The notes below the pieces were generated by a model that saw only the letters and a program-made list of their open reading frames with translations, was not told where the DNA came from and did not search any database. The translations under genes were made by a program, and so were the position numbers. Positions 5,379 through 64,000 of a stretch of 64,000 nucleotides of DNA are shown piece after piece. How positions within the stretch are numbered: the first letter of the stretch is position 1; each line of letters opens with the position of its first letter. This DNA is from Chiloscyllium plagiosum (lineage: Eukaryota). Location: contig NC_057711.1 in assembly GCF_004010195.1 (NCBI RefSeq), forward strand, positions 113,315,909-113,379,908, given 5' to 3'.

Positions 5379-5977
5379 ATAGAGTCATAGAGTCATAGAG
5401 ATGTACAGCATGGAAACAGACCCTTTGGTCCAACTGTCCATGCCGACCAGATATCCCAACCCAATCTAGTCCCACCTGCCAGCACCTCCAAACCCTTCCT
5501 ATTCATATACCCATCCAAATGCCTTTTAAATGTTGCAATTGTACCAGCCTCCACCACTTCCTCCGGCAGCTCATTCCATACACGTACCACCCTCTGCGTG
5601 AAAAAGTTGCCCCTTAGGTCTCTTTTATATCTTTCCCCTCTCACCCTAAACCTATGCCCTCTAGTTCTGGACTCCCCCACCCCAGCAAAAAGACTTTGTC
5701 TATTTATCCTATCCATGCCCCTCATAATTTTGTAAACCTCTATAAGGTCACCCCTCAGCCTCCGACGCTCCAGGGAAAACAACCACAGCCTGTTCAGCCT
5801 CTCCCTATAGCTCAAATCCTCCAATCCTGGCAACATCCTTGCAAATCTTTTCTGAACCCTTTCAAATTTCACAACATCTTTCCACAATATTCCACAGCCG
5901 TAACATGACCTCCCAACTCCTGTACTCAATACTCTGACCAATAAAGGAAAGCATACCAAACGCCTTCTTCACTATCC
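5379..5977 (-). mobile_element. Young 5'-truncated CR1 (HER1-like) with (ATGACTCT)n tail
   Basis: ORF 5393..5959 is a nearly clean ORF2 C-terminus (LFSLERRRLRGDLIEVYKIMRG…WNELPEEVVEAG). An octamer tail lies at 5379-5400. Confidence 0.93.
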
Positions 5978-5995: not shown

Positions 5996-6090
5996 GAGTT
6001 GAGAGCATGGTGCTGGAAAAGCACAGGAGGTCAGACAGCATCCGAGGAACCCCTCAACTCTGATCTCCAGCATCTGCAATCCCCACTCTC
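5996..6090. mobile_element. Short Penelope-derived fold-back insertion with 21-bp TSD
   Basis: An inverted arm (gtgctggaaaagcacagg…) is followed by the forward terminus (ctctgatctccagcatctgca…). It is flanked by tcctgc(g/c)tgatatgaatgtta at 5975-5995 and 6091-6111. Confidence 0.8.
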
Positions 6091-6949
6091 TCCTGCCTGA
6101 TATGAATGTTACTTAATCTTGGGTGGTCATTGAAGCTAAATCCAACCCGGGCTCACCTGATGGCTGATATGTATGTGAATATTTCAACAGGGTTCTCTGC
6201 ATGGTAGTCAGTGGTGAGACCCCTGGTTGATTGATTCTCTCCTTAAGATAGGAATGTTGAGGACAAAGGTAGGGAGTGCTGCGTATATTCACTGCACTTG
6301 AAGAATAAGATTTCAACCTCCCTGATCGGTGTGGTATTAAGAACCAGTAATATTTTTAAAAATGCTAAAAGTTTAGAAAATCCATGATTCAAAATCATAA
6401 AAGTAAAGGCATTTTTCATTCATTGGTAATACTCGACAGTAGAAATTCCAATGAAAACATTTATCCCAGCCTGCACTGAGGTAACCTTTCTTTTCTCTGG
6501 ATTGGAGAAAGGAAAATTGGCTAGAATTCCTACACTTGACTATTATCCAGTGACCTGAGGAGTTGGGTGTTCTCACCTTACAGGAATGTTACTACAAGGG
6601 TATGGATATTCTCCTGTGGTCAGATAGACTGCCAATATTCACACGAGTAGCTGGTGATTGGAGGCTGGAACCACATGAGACTGTCCCTTTGGATCGCAAG
6701 GGGTGGCTCGATGGTTATCTGTTCTCATTTTTCTCCTCAATTTCTAAGTGTTTGTTTGCACTGGACGTTTTTTGTTTCTTTATTTCTCACCCCCATTTCT
6801 TATTAGGGAGATACTGGTGTGCAAGCCCAAGCTAACAGCATTCCCTTTTGTGGGGTCATATATAATGAGACAAAGGAGCATATAGTAGAAAATCTGAAGT
6901 TTTAAAAACACCATATTTTTGTCATTGCATAATCCACACTAGAATGAAC

Positions 6950-7681: not shown

Positions 7682-8045
7682 CTGGCAAAGTAACACAGGT
7701 TGAAGAAATACAATCCCAAAATCATTTTACAAAAACTACAGCAAATTCTTAGCCATATGAATTGGAGACTCTGCCTTTCTTTGATTTAGTGCCCTTTTTG
7801 CCTTCGTGGAGACTAATGCATTCAATAAAAATATGGCTTAAGTGAATCTAATTGTAGAACACCAGATACAACAAATATTTAATATTATTGTCATAAACAA
7901 TCAATTTCGCCAGCAGTTGAATTTTGAAATCACAACTTTGGCCTTTGGGAAATCAGGAAATGTGTGGACTCATTGATATTGTTAAGGAATGAAAGGAAAC
8001 AACATTGTCTTCTGTTATTATGTCTCATGGTCAGTATATCAGTGC

Positions 8046-8528
8046 AGCACGGAGGAGAATGGGACCCGTGTGGGGGAGAGTGAGCACAGCGTGGGGGAGA
8101 ATGGGATCCGCGTGGGGGAGAGTGAGCGCAGCACGGAGGAGAATGGGACCCGCGTGGGGGAGAGTGAGCGCAGCACGGAGGAGAATGGGACCCGCGTGGG
8201 GGAGAGTGAGCGCAGCACGGAGGAGAATGGGACCCGCGTGGGGGAGAGTGAGCACAGTATGGGGGAGAATGAGACCCGCGTGGGGGAGAGTGAGTGCAGC
8301 ACGGAGGAGAATGGGACCCGCGTGGGGGAGAGTGAGCGCAGCGTGGAGGAGAATGGGACCCGCGTGGGGGAGAGTGAGTGCAGCACGGAGGAGAATGGGA
8401 CCCGCGTGGGGGAGAGTGAGCGCAGCACGGAGGAGAATGGGACCCGCGTGGGGGAGAGTGAGCGCAGCACGGAGGAGAATGGGACCCGTGTGGGGGAGAG
8501 TGAGCGCAGCACGGAGGAGAATGGGACC
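8046..8528 (+). repeat. 42-bp minisatellite, ~11.5 copies, in MuSK intron 1
   Basis: The unit agcacggaggagaatgggacccgcgtgggggagagtgagcgc starts at 8046, 8088 … 8508. A degenerate 21-bp periodic tract continues to ~8645. Confidence 0.97.
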
Positions 8529-8703
8529 AGCACTGAGGAGATTAAGTGTGTCGTGCAGAAGAGTGAGCCCAGCATGTTGGACAGCAAGATCAGCAAGTTG
8601 GAGAGCGAGACCTGGGCAGAGGAGAGCGAGATCAGCGCGGATGAGATGGTACAATGGTACAAAAATCCTTGGCACAACCAAAAGCTTTAAAAGGCACAGT
8701 AAT

Positions 8704-9026
8704 GGGCGGCACGGTGGCACAGTGGTTAGCACTGCTGCCTCACAGCGCCAGAGACCCGGGTTCAATTCCCGACTCAGGCGACTGACTGTGTGAAAAGTTT
8801 GCACATTTTCCCCGTGTCTGCGTGGGTTTCCTCCGGGTGCTCCGGTTTCCTCCCACAGTCCAAAGATGTGCGGGTCAGGTGAATTGGCCATGCTAAATTG
8901 CCCGTAGTGTTAGGTTAAAGGGGTAAATGTAGGGGTAGGGGTATGGGTGGGTTGCGCTTCGGCGGGTCGGTGTGGACTTGTTGGGCCGAAGGGCCTGTTT
9001 CCACACTGTAAGTAATCTAATCTAAT
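8704..9026 (+). mobile_element. HE1-type tRNA-derived V-SINE, full length
   Basis: A box TGGCACAGTGG, B box GGTTCAATTCC, V-domain gtttgcac…gggtttcctccgggtgctccggtttcctcccacagtcc, CR1-like 3' end and (AATCT)n tail. Confidence 0.95.
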
Positions 9027-26617: not shown

Positions 26618-26869
26618 CTCAGCACCACCTTCCTAACCTGCAATCTTCTTCCTGACCTCTCCGCCCCCCCACCCCCACTCCAGCCTATCACCCTCACCTT
26701 AACCTCCTTCCACCTATCACATTTCCAATGCCCCTCCCCCAAGTCCCTCCTCCCTACCTTTTATCTTAGTCTGCTTCAACTGAAGAAGGGCTCATGCCCA
26801 AAATGCCGATTCTCCTACTCCTTGGATGCTGCCTGACCTGCTGCGCTTTTCCAGCAACACATTTTCAGC
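26618..26869 (+). mobile_element. Penelope-like terminal repeat with 10-bp TSD and decayed hammerhead core
   Basis: C-rich tract, CTGAAGAAGGGCTCATGCCCAAAATG at 26780, then ggatgctgcctgacctgctgcgcttttccagc. TSD ttcataagag at 26608-26617 and 26870-26879. Confidence 0.85.
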
Positions 26870-27276
26870 TTCATAAGAGATGTGCCAAGATTTAAGCTAG
26901 GCAGTGCTGAGTTGACAATTGACTGTTAAACACCTTGTTAACAACTCAACTCGCGTCATTATTGATTGTTAAACACCTTGTTAACAACTCAACTTGCATC
27001 ATTAATATTAGTGCTTCTGATTTTACCAAACTCACCAAACAAGTCCATCATCGGGAAAGCCCAACAAGAAAGAGTGGGCACCTGGCAGATTCAGTTTATT
27101 GCAAACTCCAGGTGACCTCCATGCTGGACACCAAGAGCCAACATCTCAGGCCACACCACTCCATGGGCACCAGCCATACATCCAGAGACATTGGCATCCG
27201 ACATGACACATCTCTGATCCATTTATAAAAGGCTTCTGCATTTCAAATGCTCACAGTGTGACTATCATTGGAATGC

Positions 27277-27329
27277 NNNNNNNNTGGATGCTGCCTGACC
27301 TGCTGTGCTGTTCCAGCAATAAAGTTTCA
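27277..27329 (+). mobile_element. Penelope-like insertion, mostly lost in an assembly gap, with 16-bp TSD
   Basis: actatcattggaatgc at 27261-27276 and 27330-27345 flanks an N-gap plus ggatgctgcctgacctgctg. Confidence 0.8.
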
Positions 27330-28559
27330 ACTATCATTGGAATGCCACTGTCATTGCACTCAGGGATACATACCCAGCGCATGGATTGGACCAGGCCGCA
27401 GCTCCAGGCTCCTCACTCTCTGTCATAGTGATCACATGCTCTGAGCATAACTGGATGTTCACAGCATGCTTGCCATGCATTGCCTTGTCTTTCTGTGCTT
27501 TATCCCCTTGGACAGAGATATCAGGCTCATATCACTTCTGTATTGCTTCTCTGCTTTTTACAGATATAAAGCCGAGAATCCTATCATGGTTGTCAGCAGA
27601 CCTCAGTCAAGTCAAGAGGGATATCCTTTCCTCAGTGGTTACCAGCAAAACGTCAAGGGCAACCTTTGATAATAGTGCAGGACCTGCTCAGGACAGTCAG
27701 AATCACGGTCCTCTCCTCATGAAATGCTTAATGATGAGCAGTCCCCCATTCATCCTGACTCCTTCTTCTCTACTGAGGGCTGTTATCCTCTCGCAATGAG
27801 AAGGAGCGGTATTAAACCATCCGTGTCTATGAAGGCCTGCTTATGATACACCCCTACAGGATTAAGATGTCAGAAAGGTTAGCACAAATGTTTTCATTTT
27901 ATTGAATGCAAATATGGATAACACCCTGCCAACATACAGTGGGTATGAGAGGAAAGCTGAATGAACAATATTCCTGCAACCACATCCGACGTAATTGATG
28001 GAGTTATATATTCTTTCCAATGAGTAGTTATGATTTAGTTCTTTCCTCAAAAATCATTGAGCATCTTCCTGAGGCAGCCTGACTAAACACTGATTGTATA
28101 AAATTTGTTCTGCTGTCCTACTCCTGGTCCGACTCAAATCCTGAGTTTTAACAGTATATTTATTTGCACATTGGATCTCCTGAGCAATTTAGCCAACACA
28201 TTGTTTTTGATATGTTTGTTACAGTTGGACATTCCCACTGCAGATGAACATATTATTTAGATTTGGGGGAGTTGGTTCTTTGAAGTGGTTAGTTTGGTAG
28301 CTTTTACAATGAATTAATGGAAGTGAAAGTGGATGGCATCGATGTTGCCTTTGGTGCAGGTAGGGAGGTGTCCTGAGCAAGTGAGCAGGCAGCGTAGAGG
28401 TCACACAAGGTTAGTGGTGTCAGCGGTTGGAGTGTGTGTAATAGAAGATATCGCAAGTAATAGCGATGGTGGTAGAGCATGGGCTTTGGTGAGAGGTGAG
28501 TCCAGTAGCAAAGTTAGAGTGAATGTGAGATATTAGAGAGAAGATAGTGACATTTGCAC

Positions 28560-34248: not shown

Positions 34249-34466
34249 CAAAAGTGAGAACTGCAGATGTTGGAAACCAGAGTTTAGATCAGAGTGGTGC
34301 TGGAAAAGCACAGCAAGTCAGGCAGCATCTGAGGAGCAGGAAAATCGCCATTTTTCCATCACCAAAATCTATTCCTGATGAAGGGCTTTTGCCCGAAACG
34401 TTGATCTTCCTGCTCTTCGGATGCTGCCTGACCTGCTGTGCTTTTCCAGAACCACTCTGATCTAAA
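34249..34466. mobile_element. Penelope-derived fold-back (hairpin) insertion with hammerhead core
   Basis: Arms 34282-34347 and ~34399-34466 are reverse complements. The loop/arm junction carries CTGATGAAGGGCTTTTGCCCGAAACGTT (34375-34402). Confidence 0.88.
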
Positions 34467-37400
34467 CAACACTTGGTCCAGTTCACTCTTAAATTTGATG
34501 AGACTGCAGAGCAGACAAGTACTTAAAGGAATTCAAGATATGGGAGAAGAATGTTTGAGGTTGAAGGAAATTTTCTACACAGCTGAGGTAGATGCCTACA
34601 AATACACTTGCAAACAGACGAAAATCTAACACAAAGTTACAGATGGAAAATAAAGTTGCAAAATGGGTAATTGAGAAATAGAATGGACTCTCAGCTTCTT
34701 GTAGATCTATTTGAATACTTGCTCTGAGTAAGAAATGAGGCCTGGCAGATTTCAAATCCAACCCTAGATGCTGTACCAGGTTTGGGCACAGAATGTTTGT
34801 CTCTTTTAAAATTATTATTTTATAAATAAAACTTCAATGTTAAAAATATTTGCATTGGTTTTGGGTGTTGGGTTGTCAGGAACAGCCCATGACCTGGCAA
34901 CTCTATGAAAGTGAGGCAGTGGGAGAGGGTGGATAGCCACCCCTCTCAAATAATACTCATGTTAAAGTCAGCCCCCTAAACATCTGGCTAAATATATGGT
35001 CACAGAAGTTCAAATTTCACATGAGTACATACAGTCACTCAAAGCAGAACATTGTACGTTAAATATAGACATTTATTTGTGTACACAGTGGTTCTATCTT
35101 CCACTCTGCATTGGGAGTTTTACAAAAATAACTGTAATAGAAAAGGGACATTATAAGCTGTTTGTTTGATTTGGCCATTCATGCAGGGAAGGTGCTGTGT
35201 GTTATATTGGACACAAAGTGTAATGTAGCTTGTTACAGTATTGGACTGCTATTGAATCACTAGAGCATCCAATGCATGATATGTCAATGGTACCAGAGCC
35301 TTTTACAGCAAAACAGACATTAAAGTTCAAATATGGCATTGAAAAATGGCAGACATGGCAACTGCATAGGTTGCTTATATGAAATTCATAAATTTCAACA
35401 TTTGCTAATGAAAAACAAAGATGACTTGAAGCAAAATTGAACCATCAATTCTCGGAGACATATCGACTTACTTTAAGAAAAAGGAAAACAAACCTTTTGT
35501 ATTATTATGCTGCAAATGTCTGGAACGGCTCCAAAAACAGACTTAACTTGACTCGAAATATCAAATGCTTCTAAAATCTGGTGTGGCTTCTCTTTCATTT
35601 TAAATCATTTGGAGGTATTTCTAGCTGTTTTTTAAATAAAAGACAAGAAAGAAATGGGCCTTGAAGTACAGTATATTTTTGACTGGTCTCTAGAATATGG
35701 CAGTTCTGAGGTTAAGGGCCCAATGATCAGTTTCTGAAGTTATTTCAAAATGTTCTTGTAACTACAATATAGTTCTTTTGAGTGACAGAATACCATCAAC
35801 AGACAAGATGCTTTTTCACATATAAGTACTGTTGCAATCTCCAGAGGCAAAGAAGTTATGTTTATTGTTAATGTTTATATTTGTTTACACAAAATAAAAA
35901 TAATTTATACAAAAATGCCTGCTCTTTGGAGCACCCTTGGCAACTTCAGAATACACTTCAGTGTTTTGCAGCAAATGACATACTTATGGAGTGTAGTTGC
36001 TGTGGTAACTGGGGAAAACAGCAGTCAATTTGCACAAAGAGAGCAATAATGATTTTGAATGTATAAGCTGCACTTTTAAGAAAAATTAGTTCAGGATAAA
36101 TATTGGCCAGACAACCATGAGGTTCATTTACAGCTCCTGACCAGGTGCTAGATTTCATCTGAAAGATGGCAGCTCTAACAGCAAAACACTCCTTTAGCAT
36201 CAGCCTACTCTCTAACATTCCAGTTTCTGACATGAGATTTGAACCTCCAACCTTCCATTTGGGAGGTGAGGGTACTAACTGATAATTAATTTGACCTAGA
36301 GTATAGAAAGGATATCTGTTCATCAACCTTGGACTGAATGTATTAACATTGCTCCATTAAATATTATTTTTATATAGACAATGATTGCTAGACAAAAATT
36401 GAGGCATAACTATTGGCTTCTAGTTCTTACATTGAAGAATAGTTCTATGTGGAGACAGTTTGAGACAGTTAAACTCTGCCTTCGGTTATTCCCTTTGGCA
36501 ATAGCTTTCAGTTGTTCAGGGCTGCTAAGTGGGTCGGTGGTGCATTATGTAAACTAAATTTGACAAATCTCAGTGCGAGAGTCAGTGAACCACTGCTGTA
36601 CATATTCATAAACACACTCGTCTCAAAGCAGCTGGAGCCTGTTAAAGGTTAAAGTCTGCCATTTATTTCCTTGCGGAATAGCAAATTCAATCTTTTTGAT
36701 CAAACAGTAAAAACAGTCGGATGAATGAATAATTTTGAAATTAGTAAATATTTTGAGGGAAAAGTGAAACTAGGGATTTGAGAGTGAGTGGCCCCCAAAT
36801 TGATAACTTGCTGTCATTGATACTGCACAGCTGGTTTGACCTTTTACTGCGAGAATGTATGGCTCAATTTCTTTTTTAGAATTATTGCCGACACAAGGAT
36901 TATATTGCTGGCTAGCTGCTTTACAGTTCACGCAGTTGTAAAGATTTTACTGGCTTTCAGGAAAAAGGATAATCAGCTATGTCTGAATCCAGTCTTAATT
37001 AAATGTGTGTGGACCATATATGGCGCCAGACTGGTATACTTGCGTAACTTCAGCTCAACTCTAGCTTTCTCTGGTGGGTTAAGTCGGTATGGGCCTTGCA
37101 AACACTGGCCAGTCAGACAGTGAGATGTTGCTTTTGCCCAGCTAACAGTCGGGAGGCACAACATTGAGAATAACTGTTGGATTTCCATGTTTAGCCCTGT
37201 ATCTATTCTTTGCCTGAATGCTGTTGCATCATTAATGTTCAAAATAATGGGGAGCAAGTGCCAATACCTCACCGTTGTTTTGCCAAGAAAATAGGCTGAT
37301 GTACTGTACAAATCTAAGTATCATTGAAGCATGAGAATCCACAGTGAAGAAATGTGTTCAAATAGACCATACCTGCTGTACTGTGAGTAGCTTTTAGCAC

Positions 37401-37881
37401 CACAACTTATGGAGGATATGATAACTTTGAAGGAGTCCAACATAGATTTTCCAAAATGTATTCTGGACGCAAATGACTTCTTGTGTTAGTTTGTTCAATG
37501 TATGCATTGCTGGGCAAGCCAGTATTGTGCATCCCTAACTGTCCTTGGGAAGGTGATAATAGGCTACCTTCTTGAACTGTTGCAGTCCTTGGAATGTAGG
37601 TATACACACAATAAAGTTAGGAAGAATTTCTGATGTTTGACCTAGTGATAGTGAAGGGAAGGCATTAGAGTTCCTTAGGATTTGGAGGGGATCATGTAGG
37701 CAGTGGTGTTCCTATCCATCCACTGTCTTTGTTCTTCTTGGTGGTGGAGGACACAAGTTTAGGAGATGCTGTTGAAGGAGGCTGGGGGTGTTTTGTAATG
37801 GCACACACTGCTGCTACTGTGCACAAGTGGTAGAGGAACTCAGTAAGATGGTGGGTGGGCTGCTGTGCATTTCACCACATG

Positions 37882-38060
37882 CTGAAAAATGTGTTGCTGG
37901 AAAAGCGCAGCAGGTCAGGCAGCAGGAATCCTGAAGAAGGGCTTATGCCCAAAACGTCGATTCTCCTACTCCTTGGATGCTGCCTGACCTGCTGTGCTTT
38001 TCCAGCAACACATTTTTCAGCTCTGATCTCCAGCATCTGCAGTCCTCACTTTCTCCTAGT
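37882..38060. mobile_element. Penelope-derived fold-back insertion with TSD
   Basis: ctgaaaaatgtgttgctggaaaagcgcagcaggtcaggcagca pairs with tgctgcctgacctgctgtgcttttccagcaacacatttttcag. TSD tcaccacatg at 37872-37881 and 38066-38075. Confidence 0.88.
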
Positions 38061-42691: not shown

Positions 42692-44035
42692 AGGCAGAGA
42701 GATGGTGGCTCATAGTGACTGGACTAGTATTCTAATCGCCCCAGAGTTAATGATCTGGGTCATGGGTTCAAATCCCAGTATAGCATATGGTGATACTTGA
42801 GTTTAATAGAAACATAGATTCAAAATAAGCTCCCCTAATAGTGATCATTATCATAAAACCCATCTGGCTCATTAATGTCCTTTAGGGAAGGAAATCTACT
42901 GTTTTGACCTGGTTATAGCCTATATGTGACTCCAGCCCCTCAACGGTGTGATTGAGTGGAAGTCCACAAAGATCGATGCTGGGTCCAATACCTTTCATCA
43001 TTTATATAAATGATTTGGATGCGAGCATAAAAGGTATAGTTAGTAGGTTTGCAGATGACACCAAAATTGGAGGTGCAGTGGAAAGTGAAGAAGGTTACCT
43101 CAGATTTCAACGGGATCTTGATCAGATGGGCCAATGGGCTGTTACGTGGCAGATGGTGTTTAATTTAAATAAATGCGAGGTGCTACATTTTGGGAAAGCA
43201 AATCTTAGCAGGACTTATACACTGAATGGTAAGGTCCTAGGGAGTGCTGCTGAACAAGGAGACCTTGGAGTGCAAGTTCATAGCTCCTTGAAAGTGGAGT
43301 CGCAGGTAGATAGGATAGTGAAGAAGGTATTTGGAATGCTTTCCTTTATTGGTCAGAGTATTGAGTACAGGAGTTGGGAGGTCATGTTGCGGCTGTACAG
43401 GACATTGGTTAGACCACGGTTAGAATATTGCGTGCAATTCTGGTCTCCTTCCTATCGGAAAGATGTTGTGAAACTTGAAAGGGTTCAGAAAAGATTTACA
43501 AGGGTGTTGCCAGGTTTGGAGGACTGAAGGGAGAGACTGAATAGGCTGGAGCTGTTTTCCCTGGAGTGTCAGAGGCTGATGAGTGACCTTATAGAGGTTT
43601 ATGAAACCATGAGGGGCATAAATAGACAAAGTCTTTTCTTTGGAGTGGGTGAGTTCAGAACTAGAGAGCATGAGGTTTAGAGTGAGAGGGGTAAGATATA
43701 AAAGAGACCTAAAGGGCAACTTTTTCATGCAGAGGGTAGTACGTGTATGGAATGAGCTGCCAGAGGAAGTGGTGGAGTCTAGTACAATTGCAACATTTAC
43801 AAGGCATCTGGATGGGTATATGAATGGGAAGGGTTTGGAGGGATATGGGCCAGGTGCTAGCAGGTGGGACTAGATTGGGTTGGGATATTTGGTCAGCATG
43901 GATGAGTTGGACCAAAGGGTCTGTTTCTGTGCTGTCTATCTCTATGCTCTATGACTCTATGACTCCTAATTGCTCTCTGGGCAATAAATGTTGACTGAGT
44001 CAGTGCTTCCCATACCCTATGAACAAATAATAAAA
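42692..44035 (+). mobile_element. tRNA-derived SINE split by a CR1 insertion (parts 42692-42955 and 43961-44035)
   Basis: Head with GGGTTCAAATCCC and core aaacccatctggctcattaatgtcctttagggaaggaaatct. The SINE resumes after the CR1 tail as ctaattgctctctgggcaataaatg. Confidence 0.8.
42955..43965 (+). mobile_element. Young CR1 (HER1-like) 3' 1 kb
   Basis: ORF 42952..43527 LGPIPFIIYINDLD…FADDTKIGG…LEYCVQFWSP, with an (ATGACTCT)n tail. Confidence 0.95.
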
Positions 44036-51535: not shown

Positions 51536-51544
51536 TGATAATAA

Positions 51545-52070
51545 TGAAAACAAAGAATTACAAATGCTGGAAATCTGAAACAAAACCAGAAAATGCTGGT
51601 CAAACTCAGCAGGTTTGGCAGTGTCTGTAGAGAGAAAAACAGAGTTAACATTTTGAGTCCAGTGACCCTTCATCAGAACTGAAAAATAGAGGGTGGTTTT
51701 TGTGTTGATGACGGGGATGGGGCTGGTGGGGGTGTGGGAGAGAGAGAATACAGTACATGGAGATGGTATTGAGAGAGTGTGAGAGAGAGAGAGAGAAAGA
51801 GACAGACAGACAGACAGACAAACAGAGGGGATAGGCAAACAAAGAGATTGCTGGCAATTACCTGAGAGAGAGATAATTGCTCTGTATAGTGCTAATAGAA
51901 GTGTAAATGGTTGAAAATAGGTTGACTATACTGGGAGCAGCCCACACAAAACAGAACCTGGGCTTAATGAACAAGGACGAGGGTGTTCACATTCTGTAAT
52001 TGTTAAACTCAATGTCGGGGGATGACGGTTGTAAGGTAGAAGATGAGGTGTTGTTCCTCCAACTTCCATG
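51545..52070 (-). mobile_element. Penelope-like 3' end (different family) with hammerhead-like core and GA/GACA microsatellite
   Basis: Minus strand AGTT-CTGATGA-A-GGGTC-ACTG-GACTC-AAAATGTT-AACT (51643-51680). EEQHLIF…LQP…IEFNN endonuclease-tail-like sequence at ~51995-52060. Confidence 0.8.
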
Positions 52071-52074
52071 TTAT

Positions 52075-53015
52075 TTATTCATTTGTGGAACATGGGCATT
52101 GCTGGCTGGCCAGGATTTATTGCCCGTCGCTAGTTGCCTTTGAGATAGTGGTGATGAGCTGCATTCTTGAACCGCTGTAGTCCACCTGTTGTGAGTTGAC
52201 CCACAATGCCATTAGGGAGGGAATTCTAAGATTTTGACCGAGCGACAGTGAAGAAATGGTGATATATTTTCAAGTCAGGATGATGAGTGGCTTGGAGAGG
52301 AACTTGTTCCCATATATCAGCTGCCCTTTTTCCTTCTAGATGAAAATGGTTGTGGGTTTGGAAGGTGCTGTTTAAGGATCTTTGGTGAATTCCTGCAGTG
52401 CATCTTGTAAATAGTATACATTACTGCTACTGAGCATCGATGTTTATAGATGTAGTGTCAAAAAAGTGGGCTGTTTTGTGCTGGATGGTGTTAAGCTTCT
52501 TGAGTGTTATTGGTGCTGCATTCATATGGGGAAGTGGGGAGTATTCCATCACACCCCTGATTTGTGCCTTGGAGATGGTGGACAAACATTGGACAGACAG
52601 GACTTGAATTACTCCCTGTGGTATTCCTAGCCTTTGACCTGCTCTTGTAGTCACTTTGTTTATATGGTGAGCCAAGTTGAGTTTCTGGTCAATGATAACC
52701 CTCAGGATGTTGATAGTGGGGGCTTCAGTGATGGCAACATCATTGAATGTCAAGGGGTGGTGGTTAGATTGTCTCTTATTGGTGATGGTTATAGCCTGAT
52801 GTGAATGTTACTTGCCACTCGTCAGCCCAAACCTGAATTTTGTCTAGCTCTTATCCAGATCTTTGGACATGGACTGCTTTAGTACCAAATAGTGCTGAAC
52901 ATTGTGCAATCTTCAGTGAACATCCACACTTCTGACCTTATGATGGAGGGAAGGTCATTGATGAAGCAGCTGAAGATAACTCCTGCAGAGATATCCTGGA
53001 ACTGAGATGACTGAC
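52075..53015 (-). mobile_element. CR1-clade LINE RT + 3' end
   Basis: ORF 52427..52753 INILRVIIDQKLN…HINKVTTRAGQRLG…KAQIRGVMEYSPL. Confidence 0.85.
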
Positions 53016-57530: not shown

Positions 57531-58576
57531 CCCTGAGGTATTTAGATGTACACTTGCGATGCCAAAGCATACAAGGCTATGGGCCAATTGCTGGGAAATG
57601 TGACCAAAATAGTTAGGTGGCTGTTTTTCACCGGCATTGACACAATGGGCCAAAGGCTGGAGATCTCTACAACTCTGTGACCCATCGGAGATGTATTGTG
57701 CTATAAAGGAGGAAAAATACAAAGAATGTTTTGCACCAAAAAGGGAGGTGGTTGATGAGATTGGTTTCTACAGCAACAAATAAACCAATCAATCAATGGA
57801 CGAAAAGTTTCTGCCAATCATAAAGAAACAAGAGCATGAATAGACCATTTAACATTCCAAGCTTTCTCTGCCAAGAAGTAAGATCATGGCTGTGCTTCCA
57901 TGCATTTATGTCTTGTATGTGCTAAATGACTAAAAATTCACACCTCTCTGGGACAAAGAATTCCAATGTTCACAACTCTTCGAAGAAATTTATCCCCCTC
58001 AGACTGAAATGGCTGAGTCCTTATTCTGAGACAGAGGAAGGATGGGGTGGAGGGGGAGAAGGATGGGGAGAGGAGACAGGGTCAGCTTCACTTTCTACAT
58101 TGGCTGTTCATGGCTTAGTGATTAAAAGCCCAGATAGTGACAGTGTAGCAGGAGGTTGACTCTCTCCAACTTGTACCTTTAACTGCAGCGCTTTGGGCTT
58201 TGTGTGAGCAAGCCTTCTTCAGTGATACTGGCAATTTAAATCCATGAAGCAGTTCAGTAAAAGCAATTTTAACAGGGGGGCTGGGGGAATCAAATGTGGG
58301 TCACAGGTTTCCAGGGCTTCCTGGAAATAGCCGATGAAAAGGAGACAAGAGGGCAGCTCAAATCAAATGGGTTAAAAATAGTGACCCAAAATTTCCAGAA
58401 TTACTGAATTATCACTCCTGATTCTGTGAAAGATATTAGCTCAAAATGTATGTAAATTCTGTACTTTACACATTATTTCTATGATTTGGAAAGCCAAGTT
58501 CACTACTTGGCTAGTTTGATCTCCATTTTACATTCTTGATAGATCAGATCAGCACGATTGCTACTTATACTGAGCT

Positions 58577-58746
58577 AGGCGAAAATGAGGACTGCAAATG
58601 TTGGAGATTAGATTCAAGAATGTGGTGGTGGAAAAGCACAGCAGGTCAGGCAGCATCCGAGGAGCAGGAGAATGAACATTTTAGGCAAAAGCGCTTCATC
58701 AGCCCATTCCTGATGAAGGGCTTTTGCCCGAAACGTCGATCTCCTG
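58577..58746. mobile_element. Penelope-derived fold-back insertion with 13-bp TSD and intact hammerhead core
   Basis: TSD cttatactgagct at 58564-58576 and 58747-58759. CTGATGAAGGGCTTTTGCCCGAAACGTC at 58710-58737, with a decayed inverted copy at 58675-58702. Confidence 0.88.
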
Positions 58747-58960
58747 CTTATACTGAGCTGTCTTGTCTTGGGTGTAAGACAAGGAACTAGATGGTCTAAA
58801 TTGTTTTGCTACATCTATCAGGACGTAGTTGAATGTTGAATTCTTTTCTCGCACAAACAGATATAAATATCTCCCTGAGGATCTTTATACACAGCATTAA
58901 ATCTGCGATAGGGTATCCTTGACCTGAGGGAGGCTTGCTGGGACTACTTTACAAAATCTA

Positions 58961-59081
58961 TGATTTGGAGATGCCGGTGTTGGACTGGGGTGTACAAAGT
59001 TAAAAATCACACAACACCAGGTTATAGTCCAACAGGTTTAATTGGAAGCACACTAGCTTTCGGNNNNNNNNNNCACATGTC
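58961..59081 (-). mobile_element. Penelope-like terminus (third family), interrupted by a gap, with 10-bp TSD
   Basis: Minus strand ccGAAAGCTAgtgtgcttccaattaaacctgttggactataacctggtgttgtg. TSD acaaaatcta at 58951-58960 and 59082-59091. Confidence 0.75.
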
Positions 59082-60289
59082 ACAAAATCTACAACTCTTG
59101 TTCCCGAACTCTTAAATCCTTTATGTTTGCAATGTCCCTTTAAATAAATCCACATCACACTCACACTAAATTCAGAAGCAAATGCAGTGGTTAGATAAAA
59201 ACAAAGTAAAGGTGTGCTCTTATATTCTAGTCCCCTGTGTTTCAGCCATCTCACCCTGACTGCTCCCAGCCTGTCATTAAGCTAAAACTAACTTCCTCCA
59301 TGACTCTGACCTCTAGATTCCCCAGCTAAGGCTTGGTTGCAGGCAGCTCAGCATGTACACCCTTCACAGCAGTTGATTATCTTGTACACCAAATATTGTA
59401 ATATTAAACATGATTTAAAATAAAACTCCTTTAATTCTTTGCCATGCAAATTAACAAACATGGAGCCAACATAAAACTGCCCAGGTGGTCCTGCACTCTG
59501 ATTGGCTAGTGTAATTGTCACTGGCCTGAAAACAATTCTTACCAGGGTCAACTTGTGCAGGATGCTGTGACCTTTCTATTTACAGAACCCAGCTCACATC
59601 TGGTAGAAATTAGGCATTTTCCAAGCGATTACTTGCCAGAGTTGAAGGTGAGGATACACATCTGGCCTTTCTGAAGAATTTTATTTTAACAATGATGAGC
59701 TGATGTTAATACTGTTCAATAGTAATAGAGAATATTAGGAATATGAGGTAACTGCCCTCCAAGTGCACACATATTCACAAACATGCAAATTTGAACATAA
59801 AAGCTTGTACACATGCACGATTGCACATACATGTAGGCACATCCACACATATGAATGCATGCACACAATTAAACCACATGAACCCATCACACGCAGTAAC
59901 ACTAGACTTAGTAGAGGAGCTCAAAGTTGTGAGGACGTTTGTTAAGCAAGTAAGGATAAATTGTTTCCAAGAGTGGAAAGAACATTAACTAGAAGTTTAA
60001 AGTTAATTGACAAAGAACTTGTGCATGCAATATTGTCTCTTACAAAACAAATTGTTGTGATTTGAATCACTGTCTGAAAGAGTGATGGAAGCACAGACAA
60101 TAATAGCTATCCAAAAAAAAATTGAATAAGTTCATAACTCTCCAAAGTTTGCCTTTTATGGACAAAATGACTTCATAAAGGATCCTCCAGGTAATAAGAC
60201 ACAAGACCATAAGACACAGGGGCAGAAATTAGGCCACTCGGCCCATCAAGTCTGCTCCACCATTCAATCATGGCTGATAGGTTTTTCAA

Positions 60290-60872
60290 GGAGAAAGTGA
60301 GGACTGCAGATGCTATCCTCTACATCAGGGAGATAGGACACCTACTTGCAGATCGTTTCAGTGAACATCTCTGGGACACCTGCACCAACCAACCCCACCA
60401 TCTCATGGCTGAATGCTTCAACTCTCCCTCCCACTCTGTCAAGGACATGCAAGTCCTGGGCCTCTTCCATCACCAAAGCCTTACCACCCGACGCAAGGAG
60501 GAAGAATGCCTCAAATTCTGCATTGGGACCCTGCAACCACAGGAAGTCAATATGGATTTCAACAGTTTCCTCATTTTCCCTCCCCCCACATTATCCCAGT
60601 CCCAAGCCTCCAACTCAGCACCAACTCCTAACCTGTCCATCACCTTTTCCATTTATCCTCTCCACCCTCCTCTCCGACCTATCACCTCTCCCTCACCTTC
60701 ATCTACTTATCGCATTCCCAGCTACCTTCCCCCCCACTCCACCCCCCTCCCAATTATCTCTCAGCCTCCCTGGCCCAGAAATCTCATTCCTGATGAATGC
60801 CCCAAAATCGATTCTCCTGATCCTTGGATGCTGCCTGAGCTGCTGTGCTTTTCCAGCACTACACTCTCGACT
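60290..60872 (+). mobile_element. Penelope-like element 3' part (GIY-YIG endonuclease C-half + terminal repeat) with short 5' inversion and 16-bp TSD
   Basis: ORF 60270..60974 LYIREIGHLLADRFSEHL…FNSPSHS…GTLQPQEVNMDF is a decayed YIGET.R.L..RF.EH motif. The inverted terminus gagaaagtgaggactgcagatgct is at the 5' end. Direct repeats ctga(t/c)aggt(t/a)tttcaa at 60274-60289 and 60873-60888. Confidence 0.9.
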
Positions 60873-61666
60873 CTGACAGGTATTTCAACCCAATTTTCAT
60901 GCTTTCTCCCTGTAACCCTTGATCTCCTTGGCAATCAAGAACTTAGCTATCTCTGTTTTAAATATACTGAATGACCTCGCCTCCACAGCCTTCTGTGACA
61001 ATGAATTTCACAGATTCACCACTCTTTGGTGAAAGAAGTTTCTCCTAATCTCCATTCTAAAGGGCCTTCCCTTTACTCTAAGGTTGTGCCCTCAGGTCCT
61101 CATCTCTCCTGCCAATGGTAACATCTTCCAGTAACGTCCACTCTGTCCAGGCCATTCAGTATTTTGAAAGTTTCAATCAGATTCCCCCTCATCCTTCTAA
61201 ACTCCATTGAGTATAATTCCAGAGTCCTCAACTGTTCCTCATACATTAAGCCTTTCAGTCCTAGGATCATTCTGGACACTTCTGGACACACTCCAAGGCT
61301 AATATATCTTTCCTGAGGTATGGCAAAATTGTTCACATTATTCTAAATGTGGTCTAATCAGAGTCTTATAAAGCCTCAGGTGTATATCCCTGCTCTTATA
61401 TTCTAGTCCTCTCGAAATGAATGACAACATTGTATTTGCCTTCCTAACTATTGACTCAACCTGCAAGTTTACCTTAAGAGAAACCTGGACTAGGACTCAC
61501 AAGTCCCTTTGCACTTCAGACTTTTGAATTTTCTTCCCATCTAGAAAACAGTCCATGCCTCTATTCTTTGTACCTCACACTTTCCCACATTGTTTTTCAT
61601 CTGCCACTTTACCCACTCCCTCTTAACCTGTCTAAACCTTTCTGCAGCCTCCCTCCTACTCAATGT

Positions 61667-61986: not shown

Positions 61987-63192
61987 ACACCTGTCCTTCC
62001 ACCTATCTTTGTATCATCTTCAAACTTAGCCAGAATGCCCTCAGTTACTTCAGCTAGTTATTTAAAGTCGAGGTCCCAACACTGATCTTGTGGAACACCA
62101 CTAGTCACCTGCTTCCATCCTGAGAAGGACTTTCTGCCTTCTATCAGACAGCAAACTCCTATCCATGCCAGCACCTTGCCTCTAACACCATGAGCCCTTA
62201 TCTAACTCAGCAGCCTCCTGTGCCGCACCTTATCAAAGGCTTTCTGGAAGTCCAGACAGATAATATCCACTGCCTCTTCTTGGTCTAACCTGCCCATTAC
62301 CTCCTTAAAGAATTCTAACAGATTTGTCAGGCATGACCTCCCCTTGATGAAACCATGCTGGCCTTGCCCTATTTTACCATACACTTCCAAGTATTCAGAA
62401 ATCTCATCCTTCACAATGGGCTCCAAAATCTTACCAATGACTGAGGTCAGGCTAATCGGCTGATAATTTCGCATCTTTTGCCTTACTCTCTTCTGAAAGG
62501 GGGGGGGGGGTTACATTAATGATTTTCCAGTCGCCTGGGACCCTCTCTGACTCCAGTGGTACCTGAAAGATCACTAGTAAAGCCTCCACTATGTCTTCAG
62601 CTAACTCCTTTAGAACTCTAGCGTGTAGCCCGACTGGACCAGCTGATTTATCCACTTTCAGACCTTGCAGTTTTTCAGTTATAGTGATCCACATTCCACA
62701 TTCTGTTTGAGGACGGGAAATATAGACTGCAACTAATGTCCTGAAGATAGATGAAGACAGTTAGCTAAAGTAGTACGGGAAAATAAAATTTAAAAATTAA
62801 AATTTTGTCCAAGCCGTTACCATCTCCTGAAGTAGACAGACTAAGGTGGCAATTTTCGCAACTCCCACTACCCACCTAAAAGATAAAAATCCGGAACAAT
62901 CTCCATTTAAAAAGAAGAGTTCTTTCATTTAAGTTGAACATGGAGAAGATGCTCTCAGAGGCTGATGAGTCATTGAAATTCTCTTCTCCAGACGGCATTG
63001 AGGGGGGGTGGTGCGTCATTTATTTACGGCAGAGATTGATAGATTAGATATGATCCTACTAAATCTGGAATAAGTTTGATGGGCCGAATGGCCTGCTCGT
63101 GCTCATGTTCTTATGCTGCTATATTGGTAACTTTCAAAGAGCCACAGAAATGCCGAATGGCCTCCTCTTGTGCTTTGTAACTTTATCATGAT

Positions 63193-63377
63193 CTGAAAAA
63201 TGTGTTGCTGGAAAAGCGCAGCAGGTCAGGCAGCATCCAAGGAGCAGGAGAATCAATGTTTCGGGCATAAGCCCTTCATGATTCTCCTACTCCTTGGATG
63301 CTGCCTGACCTGCTGCGCTTTTCCAGCAACACATTTTTCAGCTCTGATCTCCAGCATCTGCAGACCTCACTTTCTCC
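63193..63377. mobile_element. Penelope-derived fold-back insertion with 14-bp TSD
   Basis: Arms 63193-63254 and ~63280-63341 are reverse complements. TSD aactttatcat(g/a)at at 63179-63192 and 63378-63391. Confidence 0.88.
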
Positions 63378-64000
63378 AACTTTATCATAATGCATGGATA
63401 CTTGAACATGTTGCGGTGCAATGAGTAGCATTCCTGAGACTAGGACCTGATGACCAAAGCAGTGCGTTCATAATGGGGCCAAGCAAGTTGTGAATGTTTT
63501 CAATGCACCCAATAGCAAGTAAAAGTGGAAGAGATTCTTGCTTTATCATTATCTGGAATGAAAGTTGAAGCCTCAACCATCATTATCTGTAGCTCCAGGG
63601 TACAACAACCACCTTAAAAAATATATTTTGCCATAGCAACTCGGACACCCTGAGTGAAATGTAACAAACCAGCACCATATGGATAAGATCACTGCCACAC
63701 ACAGCACAGACATTCCACATCCATTAACCCATAAACGCTATCAGCTTAGCTAGAAGACCACAATAAATTTCTGCACGGATATTGGTTCCTTTTTCTGACA
63801 CCCCATTGTCACTATTTAACAGTGTGTGGGTTAAGAGCTCCACTAAAATAGGGGATAGAGGAATGTAGAATTCCTCTTTCATCCAAAATGTAAAATGGAA
63901 AGGATAAAACCCCTATCCTTAACAATGTTTGCTTCACCTGAATATGGTAAAGGGACAAAGGGATCTGGATGCACAGAGCCATCAATCATGAAAAGTAGCA

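Follow-up and report, generated by a model that had tools for sequence, protein, structure and literature searches.

Does the short motif at positions 58710-58737 (plus strand) of this 64,000-nucleotide stretch of the Chiloscyllium plagiosum genome (hereafter, the window) derive from a self-cleaving RNA, which element carried it there, and does it cut? The sequence-only reading had seen here a hammerhead core with an extra A after A9, a short stem II and a GUC cleavage triplet, and had proposed that such repeats are the termini of Penelope-like elements (PLEs). All of the structural features are present as described: the motif, CUGAUGA-A-[GGGC UUUU GCCC]-GAAA-C-G-U-C, is a minimal type I hammerhead with an intact core and a predicted cut after 58737. 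Positions within the motif are given throughout as hammerhead position numbers (G12, C15.2, U16.1 and so forth).

The motif belongs to a repeat family, termed here family A, which occupies eight loci and a total of 1736 bp in the window. The insertion around it spans 58561-58759, is flanked by a 16-nt target-site duplication (TSD; 58561-58576 and 58744-58759, one mismatch) and includes an inverted arm with a tail on the minus strand (58578-58702); this arm contains a decayed hammerhead (58702-58675) and, by prediction, forms a long hairpin with the 58710 copy. A sibling of identical layout and with the GUU triplet claimed for it is found in the inverted pair at 34249-34467, where the plus-strand core at 34375-34402 is intact and the minus arm has a tail and a deleted stem II. 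Two further plus-strand copies had been said to carry G12>A, which is correct for both 37931-37958, in the inverted pair at 37881-38057 (tail at approximately 38022-38057), and 26780-26807, in the pseudo-LTR fragment at 26620-26870 (plus); the damage to the latter had been underreported, as it also carries C15.2>U and U16.1>C. The longest insertion, at 60288-60873 (plus strand, 16-nt TSD), consists of an inverted tail piece (60288-60312), an endonuclease remnant (60312-60578) and a C-rich pseudo-LTR followed by a hammerhead with stem II deleted (60790). The remaining loci are an inverted pair at 63191-63378, the minus arm of which begins within the core and the plus arm at 63280, the first base past the predicted cut; a short inverted pair without a hammerhead at 5996-6095 (21-nt TSD); and a plus-strand arm at 27286-27330 (16-nt TSD) that adjoins an assembly gap at 27277-27284.

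Eight family A arms reach the motif and two of them keep the whole core. In the others, either stem II is deleted or there are substitutions (G12>A, C15.2>U, C17>U, G16.2>A), most of which are transitions of the CpG type. Stem I comprises two adjacent pairs in this family, consistent with the earlier caution that it is weak in the best-preserved copy. The copy at 37931 has a 6-bp stem I, which we do not regard as typical of the family: it coincides with the point of inversion, and AUUC precedes the motif in three other copies.

Could a palindromic repeat resemble a hammerhead core by chance? A loose core-plus-stem-II pattern does occur by chance and alone is not significant, with three matches in the window at a stem of at least 4, where 30 first-order Markov simulations average 0.43, and 14 when one mismatch is allowed, where they average 9.6; moreover, an Rfam search of the window returned no hammerhead family among its eight matches at E<=5. 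On the other side, the full minimal-hammerhead descriptor, in which a palindromic pair, UH and stem I are added to the loose pattern, matches twice (58710 and 34375) and never in 500 dinucleotide shuffles, counts that are to be read in light of the descriptors having been drawn up after the motifs were seen and of copies within one family being non-independent. With G12A allowed there are four matches, adding 37931 and 51676 (minus), and a relaxed descriptor gives five, adding 58222-58188 (minus), against one match in 200 shuffles. A perfect core at 43576 that matched the loose pattern was dropped, as it fails the full descriptor. Given also that the layout is found in three families with different stems, and downstream of an endonuclease as in known PLEs, we regard a chance resemblance as highly improbable.

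The second of these families, family B, lies at 51541-52075 (minus) and consists of a frameshifted endonuclease C-terminus (approximately 52071-51993), a pseudo-LTR and a hammerhead at 51676-51647 with G12>A and C15.2>U. It had been described as an unrelated family that keeps the layout with its own stems. The layout, stem II (GGGUC/GACUC) and the four pairs of stem I (AGUU/AACU) are as described, but a relationship does exist: alignments of the family B 3' region to family A score 47 and 45, values that none of 1000 shuffles reached, and judged by this similarity family B is a distant relative of family A. Family B (51690-51679, minus) and one family A subfamily (26755-26769, plus) have a pyrimidine tract followed by AG immediately before stem I, an arrangement that resembles the intron end at helix I of the Penelope element of D. 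virilis (PMC4209133).

Family C is represented by an arm at 58961-59063 (minus), with a 12-nt TSD across the adjacent gap. The window holds solely the 3' half of its hammerhead, GAAA-GC-UA-GUG at 59061-59051 (minus; G12 at 59061, CUA triplet ending at 59054), and the 5' half falls in the gap. When the missing half is taken from the read ends of sister copies, the motif that had been noticed beside the gap at 59064 gains a full core and a stem II different from those of families A and B, namely CUGAUGA plus A, a stem II of GGAGC/GCUCC with a loop of GUC or AGC, and a stem I of three pairs (CAC/GUG). There were 562 such reads behind 59063 (agreement 0.89) and, behind 59051, 327 in X21 and 660 in X1; the core completed in this way is the sequence of the sister copies and may differ from the content of this locus's own gap. 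Family C does not align with family A (455 of 1000 shuffles scored as high) and aligns weakly with family B (8 of 1000). This gap, at 59064-59073, and that at 27277-27284 both lie inside fold-back insertions, between the target-site duplications, and short-read assemblies are therefore likely to undercount such insertions. A candidate for a fourth, older family, at 58188-58222 (minus), is a single copy with two core mismatches and a 5-bp stem II (GGCUU/AAGCC); it has no sibling in the window, no protein link and no downstream similarity to families A, B or C.

Across the families, a CUGANGA / GAAA / NUH core in type I order is present in the two intact family A copies, in family C (in reads) and, with G12>A, in family B. 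An unpaired base between positions 9 and 10.1 and a G10.1-C11.1 pair are found in all four descriptor matches and in family C. Stem III had been thought to be reduced to a 4-nt palindrome, and this is what we observe: ACGU in family A, decayed to AUGU in family B, and AGCU in family C. Compared by eye, stem II stays paired in three different sequences (GGGC/GCCC, GGGUC/GACUC and GGAGC/GCUCC), with changes on both sides at the third pair from its base (G-C, G-C and A-U in A, B and C, respectively) and at the fourth (C-G, U-A and G-C). In a formal count on six window copies, with family C left out and family B misaligned by MAFFT, the signal was weak: 22 of 500 shuffles were as well paired, and 155 of 500 had as many pairs changed on both sides.

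Which element supplied the motif is indicated by the longest family A insertion, in which the translation of a frame at 60312-60578 looks like the C-terminus of a GIY-YIG endonuclease; the frame is followed by the C-rich stretch, the decayed motif and the family A 3' end. A phmmer search with this fragment matched 258 proteins at E<=0.001, the best single-stretch match being 2.3e-12; three matches (P0001, P0005 and P0011) were set aside as multi-stretch and repetitive. Pfam found nothing relevant in the fragment itself, and GIY-YIG in 16 of the 21 relatives scanned (E<=0.01; six above the Pfam cut-off); one relative, P0109, has a weak RVT_1 in addition to GIY-YIG. Names were obtained for six of the nine relatives looked up, of which five are from skates, rays or whale shark and one from a sea urchin. 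A word-based homolog search for longer proteins gave 11 candidates, none at E<=1e-5. For family B, the upstream region is matched by 50 of 151 proteins (best 1.6e-6), compared with 3-15 for 19 non-overlapping control pieces (a 20th, which overlapped the tested region, was left out). A GIY-YIG C-terminus followed by a pseudo-LTR with a hammerhead is thus present in families A and B; for family C, no endonuclease or other protein link was seen in the window.

A CX2-5CXXC linker is present in 22 of the 48 relatives with enough upstream sequence, including the best match, P0002. Neptune and Nematis elements have this linker and Penelope/Poseidon elements lack it, according to PMC8557442, and one preprint lists vertebrate PLEs as Neptune and Poseidon only. 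Judged by these features of the homologs, the parent elements are probably Neptune; in the window itself, the endonuclease fragment is without a linker and the truncated copies are without an RT domain. In three ray or skate host proteins (P0110, P0094 and P0002, annotated as neuromedin-U receptor 1 or 'mucin-2'), the C-terminal ends are PLE endonuclease sequence, reflecting either exonisation or gene-model error. The 20-nt family word was found at no viral locus; its 17 metagenome loci were taken as chance, all matches being at most 30 nt. As to the rest of the window, 7930-8909 is a tandem repeat of units of about 33 nt that is open in several frames, and many frames (for example, 1084-1742, 5393-5968, 42952-43527 and 62202-62760) resemble what we take to be fragments of CR1/L2-type LINE reverse transcriptase.

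The anatomy of the insertions points in the same direction as the endonuclease. In family A, six insertions have two arms in inverted orientation, one arm alone bearing a tail of about 33-36 nt, and TSDs of 12-21 nt with at most two mismatches were found at eight of ten loci tested (without a null control). An adjacent inverted, 5'-truncated copy and a 30-40 bp tail at one end are described for PLE insertions (PMC8557442, section 6). The endonuclease remnant and this anatomy bear out the proposal that the repeats are hammerhead-bearing PLE termini. Their small size (mostly 100-250 nt) and great number (eight family A loci in 64 kb, and 148,973 matching X1 contigs) would also suit a non-autonomous family, retrozyme or SINE-like, whose units spread by themselves through circular RNA, and tandem hammerhead retrozymes are reported from one chondrichthyan (preprint 10.64898/2026.07.22.740005). 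Such a family, however, is hard to reconcile with copies that are inverted pairs with variable junctions (no head-to-tail tandem of these units occurs among the window's loci), with an end sequence that runs continuously from the endonuclease remnant at 60312-60873 and with units that have no canonical 6-bp helix I; we consider it improbable. Our main reading, to which we assign a probability of roughly 0.8, is that these are minimal type I hammerheads in the pseudo-LTRs of at least three endonuclease-bearing PLE families, probably Neptune, preserved in short dead insertions, and that the parent elements likely cut weakly, as protein-assisted dimers.

The points at which the arms start bear on whether the template RNA was cut. 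Read by eye relative to the predicted cut, they lie at about -500, -190, -39, -35, -30, -28, -28, -25, +1, +12 and +20, in addition to two tail-only pieces. Of the seven readable insertions, four have the start of their longer arm at the 5' edge of the motif (C3 = -28), within the interval from -39 to -25, and in six an arm traverses the predicted cut site. The arm at 63280 starts exactly at +1, a single case that is not significant. A template RNA that starts at the motif's 5' edge would fit a pseudo-LTR start site with internal priming (PMC6765202, PMC2377424). We put forward only tentatively that a minority of arms start at the cut, in which case the shark copies would form a fossil record of where PLE RNAs start and of how often they are cut in vivo.

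Alternatively, the parents may keep the motif as a folded signal, for protein binding or as a mark of the RNA 5' boundary, and cleave rarely or never in vivo. Both the insertions that start at the motif's edge and the arms that run through the cut site speak for this, as does the anole element, in which hammerhead mutants left insertion unaffected and RNA-seq showed no read ends at the cleavage site (PMC11167929). On the other hand, three families that differ in their stems have all retained the full set of catalytic positions, G12 and the NUH triplet among them, the anole motif was cleaved once the protein was added (PMC11167929), and one arm does begin at +1. A purely signalling role is thus possible but, in our view, doubtful.

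RNA of the family occurs in both orientations in run X21, with 5381 matching reads of approximately 13 million; run X22 contributed none. Reads were collected at 80% likeness over 58520-59200 and so had to resemble the reference, which biases them towards conservation. In these 5381 RNA reads neither starts nor ends pile up anywhere in this interval, a result on the side of a folded signal from a single-cell poly(A) library that is poorly suited to the question. At the decayed minus arm (58702-58675), the majority of reads show core and stem II restored; among X21 RNA reads, G12 is present in 348 of 438 and in 295 of 352. Among differences at 58710-58737 listed at 10% or more of reads, the ones shared by RNA and DNA affect N7 and loop II. 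At 58733, 94 of 394 X21 reads in one direction and 1 of 181 in the other have A15.1>C; this change, found at about 0.25% of depth in DNA, comes perhaps from one highly expressed copy.

Predicted folding suggests that the copies in the window do not act as ribozymes. The segment 58655-58750 forms a predicted hairpin of -51.9 kcal/mol (z -8.1) in which the whole motif is paired with the antisense arm, so that the 58710 copy would be shut away by its own inverted arm. Since the arms of an insertion are on opposite strands, a read-through RNA would contain one sense motif and its complement; given this and the hairpin, the window's loci are likely inactive, and the model in which two copies together form stem III is inapplicable to them as they stand. 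For dimers of the 58710 copy, the predicted hammerhead-type fold has -13.3 kcal/mol against -24.6 for an alternative (two monomers, about -14.4), which suggests that naked RNA would not favour the active dimer and that protein would be needed. The family A fold-back at 63215-63321 matches the microRNA family mir-2756 at 53.8 bits (E 1.4e-9), short of its gathering score of 61, and such fold-backs could be mis-annotated as microRNA precursors or be sources of dsRNA.

The presence of the repeats in both orientations of poly(A) RNA, together with a report that 30% of whale shark PLEs are intronic (10.1101/443036), might instead suggest ribozymes that the host has domesticated for cutting its pre-mRNAs. 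Both the broken core in six of the eight family A arms and the predicted hairpin around the 58710 copy argue against such a role, and we find it very unlikely.

We therefore return to PLE parents that likely cut weakly with the help of protein. In metazoan PLEs, minimal hammerheads of pseudo-LTRs were uncleaved as monomers and weakly cleaved as multimers (PMC4209133); in the anole element, cleavage by the ribozyme required the protein of the element, and the tail is accounted for by two internal priming sites (PMC11167929); and in one preprint eight of nine related dimers failed to cleave. The role of PLE hammerheads has been called unclear (PMC8557442). Based on these systems, we propose that the element's protein would nick AT-rich DNA and that reverse transcription would begin at either of two internal sites (after PMC11167929), approximately 85 and 120 nt downstream of stem II, giving the optional tail. 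The template would be mostly uncut RNA, as we infer from the arms that cross the predicted cut site in six of the seven readable insertions. In a tandem transcript, two copies of the same sense could form stem III by pairing through their palindromes, ACGU or AGCU (after PMC4209133), and cleavage after GUC, GUU or CUA would trim the precursor RNA. Selection would act on the motif in the parent elements; once inserted, copies degenerate mainly through mutation at CpG positions, and the inverted arm is predicted to close over the motif.

Much of this motif is not new. The class of PLE hammerheads has been published, together with its additional base following A9 and its palindrome (Cervera and de la Pena 2014), and PLEs are known to have expanded in whale shark (10.1101/443036). 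In the literature we found no description of hammerheads in shark PLEs, and Repbase, Dfam or paper supplements may list the families. Our data extend PLE minimal hammerheads to cartilaginous fish. The density seen here (eight family A loci and two intact cores per 64 kb, extrapolated from one window) suggests that there are enough copies for genome-wide junction counts, which could test cleavage in vivo without bench work.

The closest counterparts are the minimal hammerheads of metazoan PLE pseudo-LTRs (PMC4209133), which share with the shark motifs the CUGANGA core, the extra base between 9 and 10.1, the G10.1-C11.1 pair, GAAA-N-N'-U-H with a palindromic 15.2/16.2, the lack of a loop III, a short helix I, and an occurrence either singly at dispersed sites or as pairs on opposite strands. 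In Fig. S3 of that work, the rows for Ciona, Xenopus and turtle have a layout equal to that of the shark motifs, and cartilaginous fish are absent among the rows compared. Stem II of family A has 4 bp, in contrast to 7-8 in Schistosoma, and its stem I has two adjacent pairs; a stem III formed by a 4-nt palindrome pairing between two copies would agree with the published model (PMC4209133). With the endonuclease-positive PLEs of the Neptune clade (PMC8557442) the shark copies share a C-terminal GIY-YIG followed by a pseudo-LTR with a hammerhead, the adjacent inverted 5'-truncated copy and the tail at one end, whereas the window's copies have no RT or linker and have clear TSDs (12-21 nt). PAc, a Poseidon element of Anolis (PMC11167929), belongs to another clade, and its ORF starts inside the hammerhead, where no open frame starts in the shark copies; it likewise has a hammerhead about 100 nt upstream of two tail-defining end points and an apparently uncut template. 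Non-LTR retrozymes (PMC7229834; 10.64898/2026.07.22.740005) are also small hammerhead-bearing animal repeats, and are derived from PLE pseudo-LTRs according to the latter preprint; they are head-to-tail tandems, those of PMC7229834 with canonical hammerheads, whereas the shark units are inverted, dispersed and minimal.
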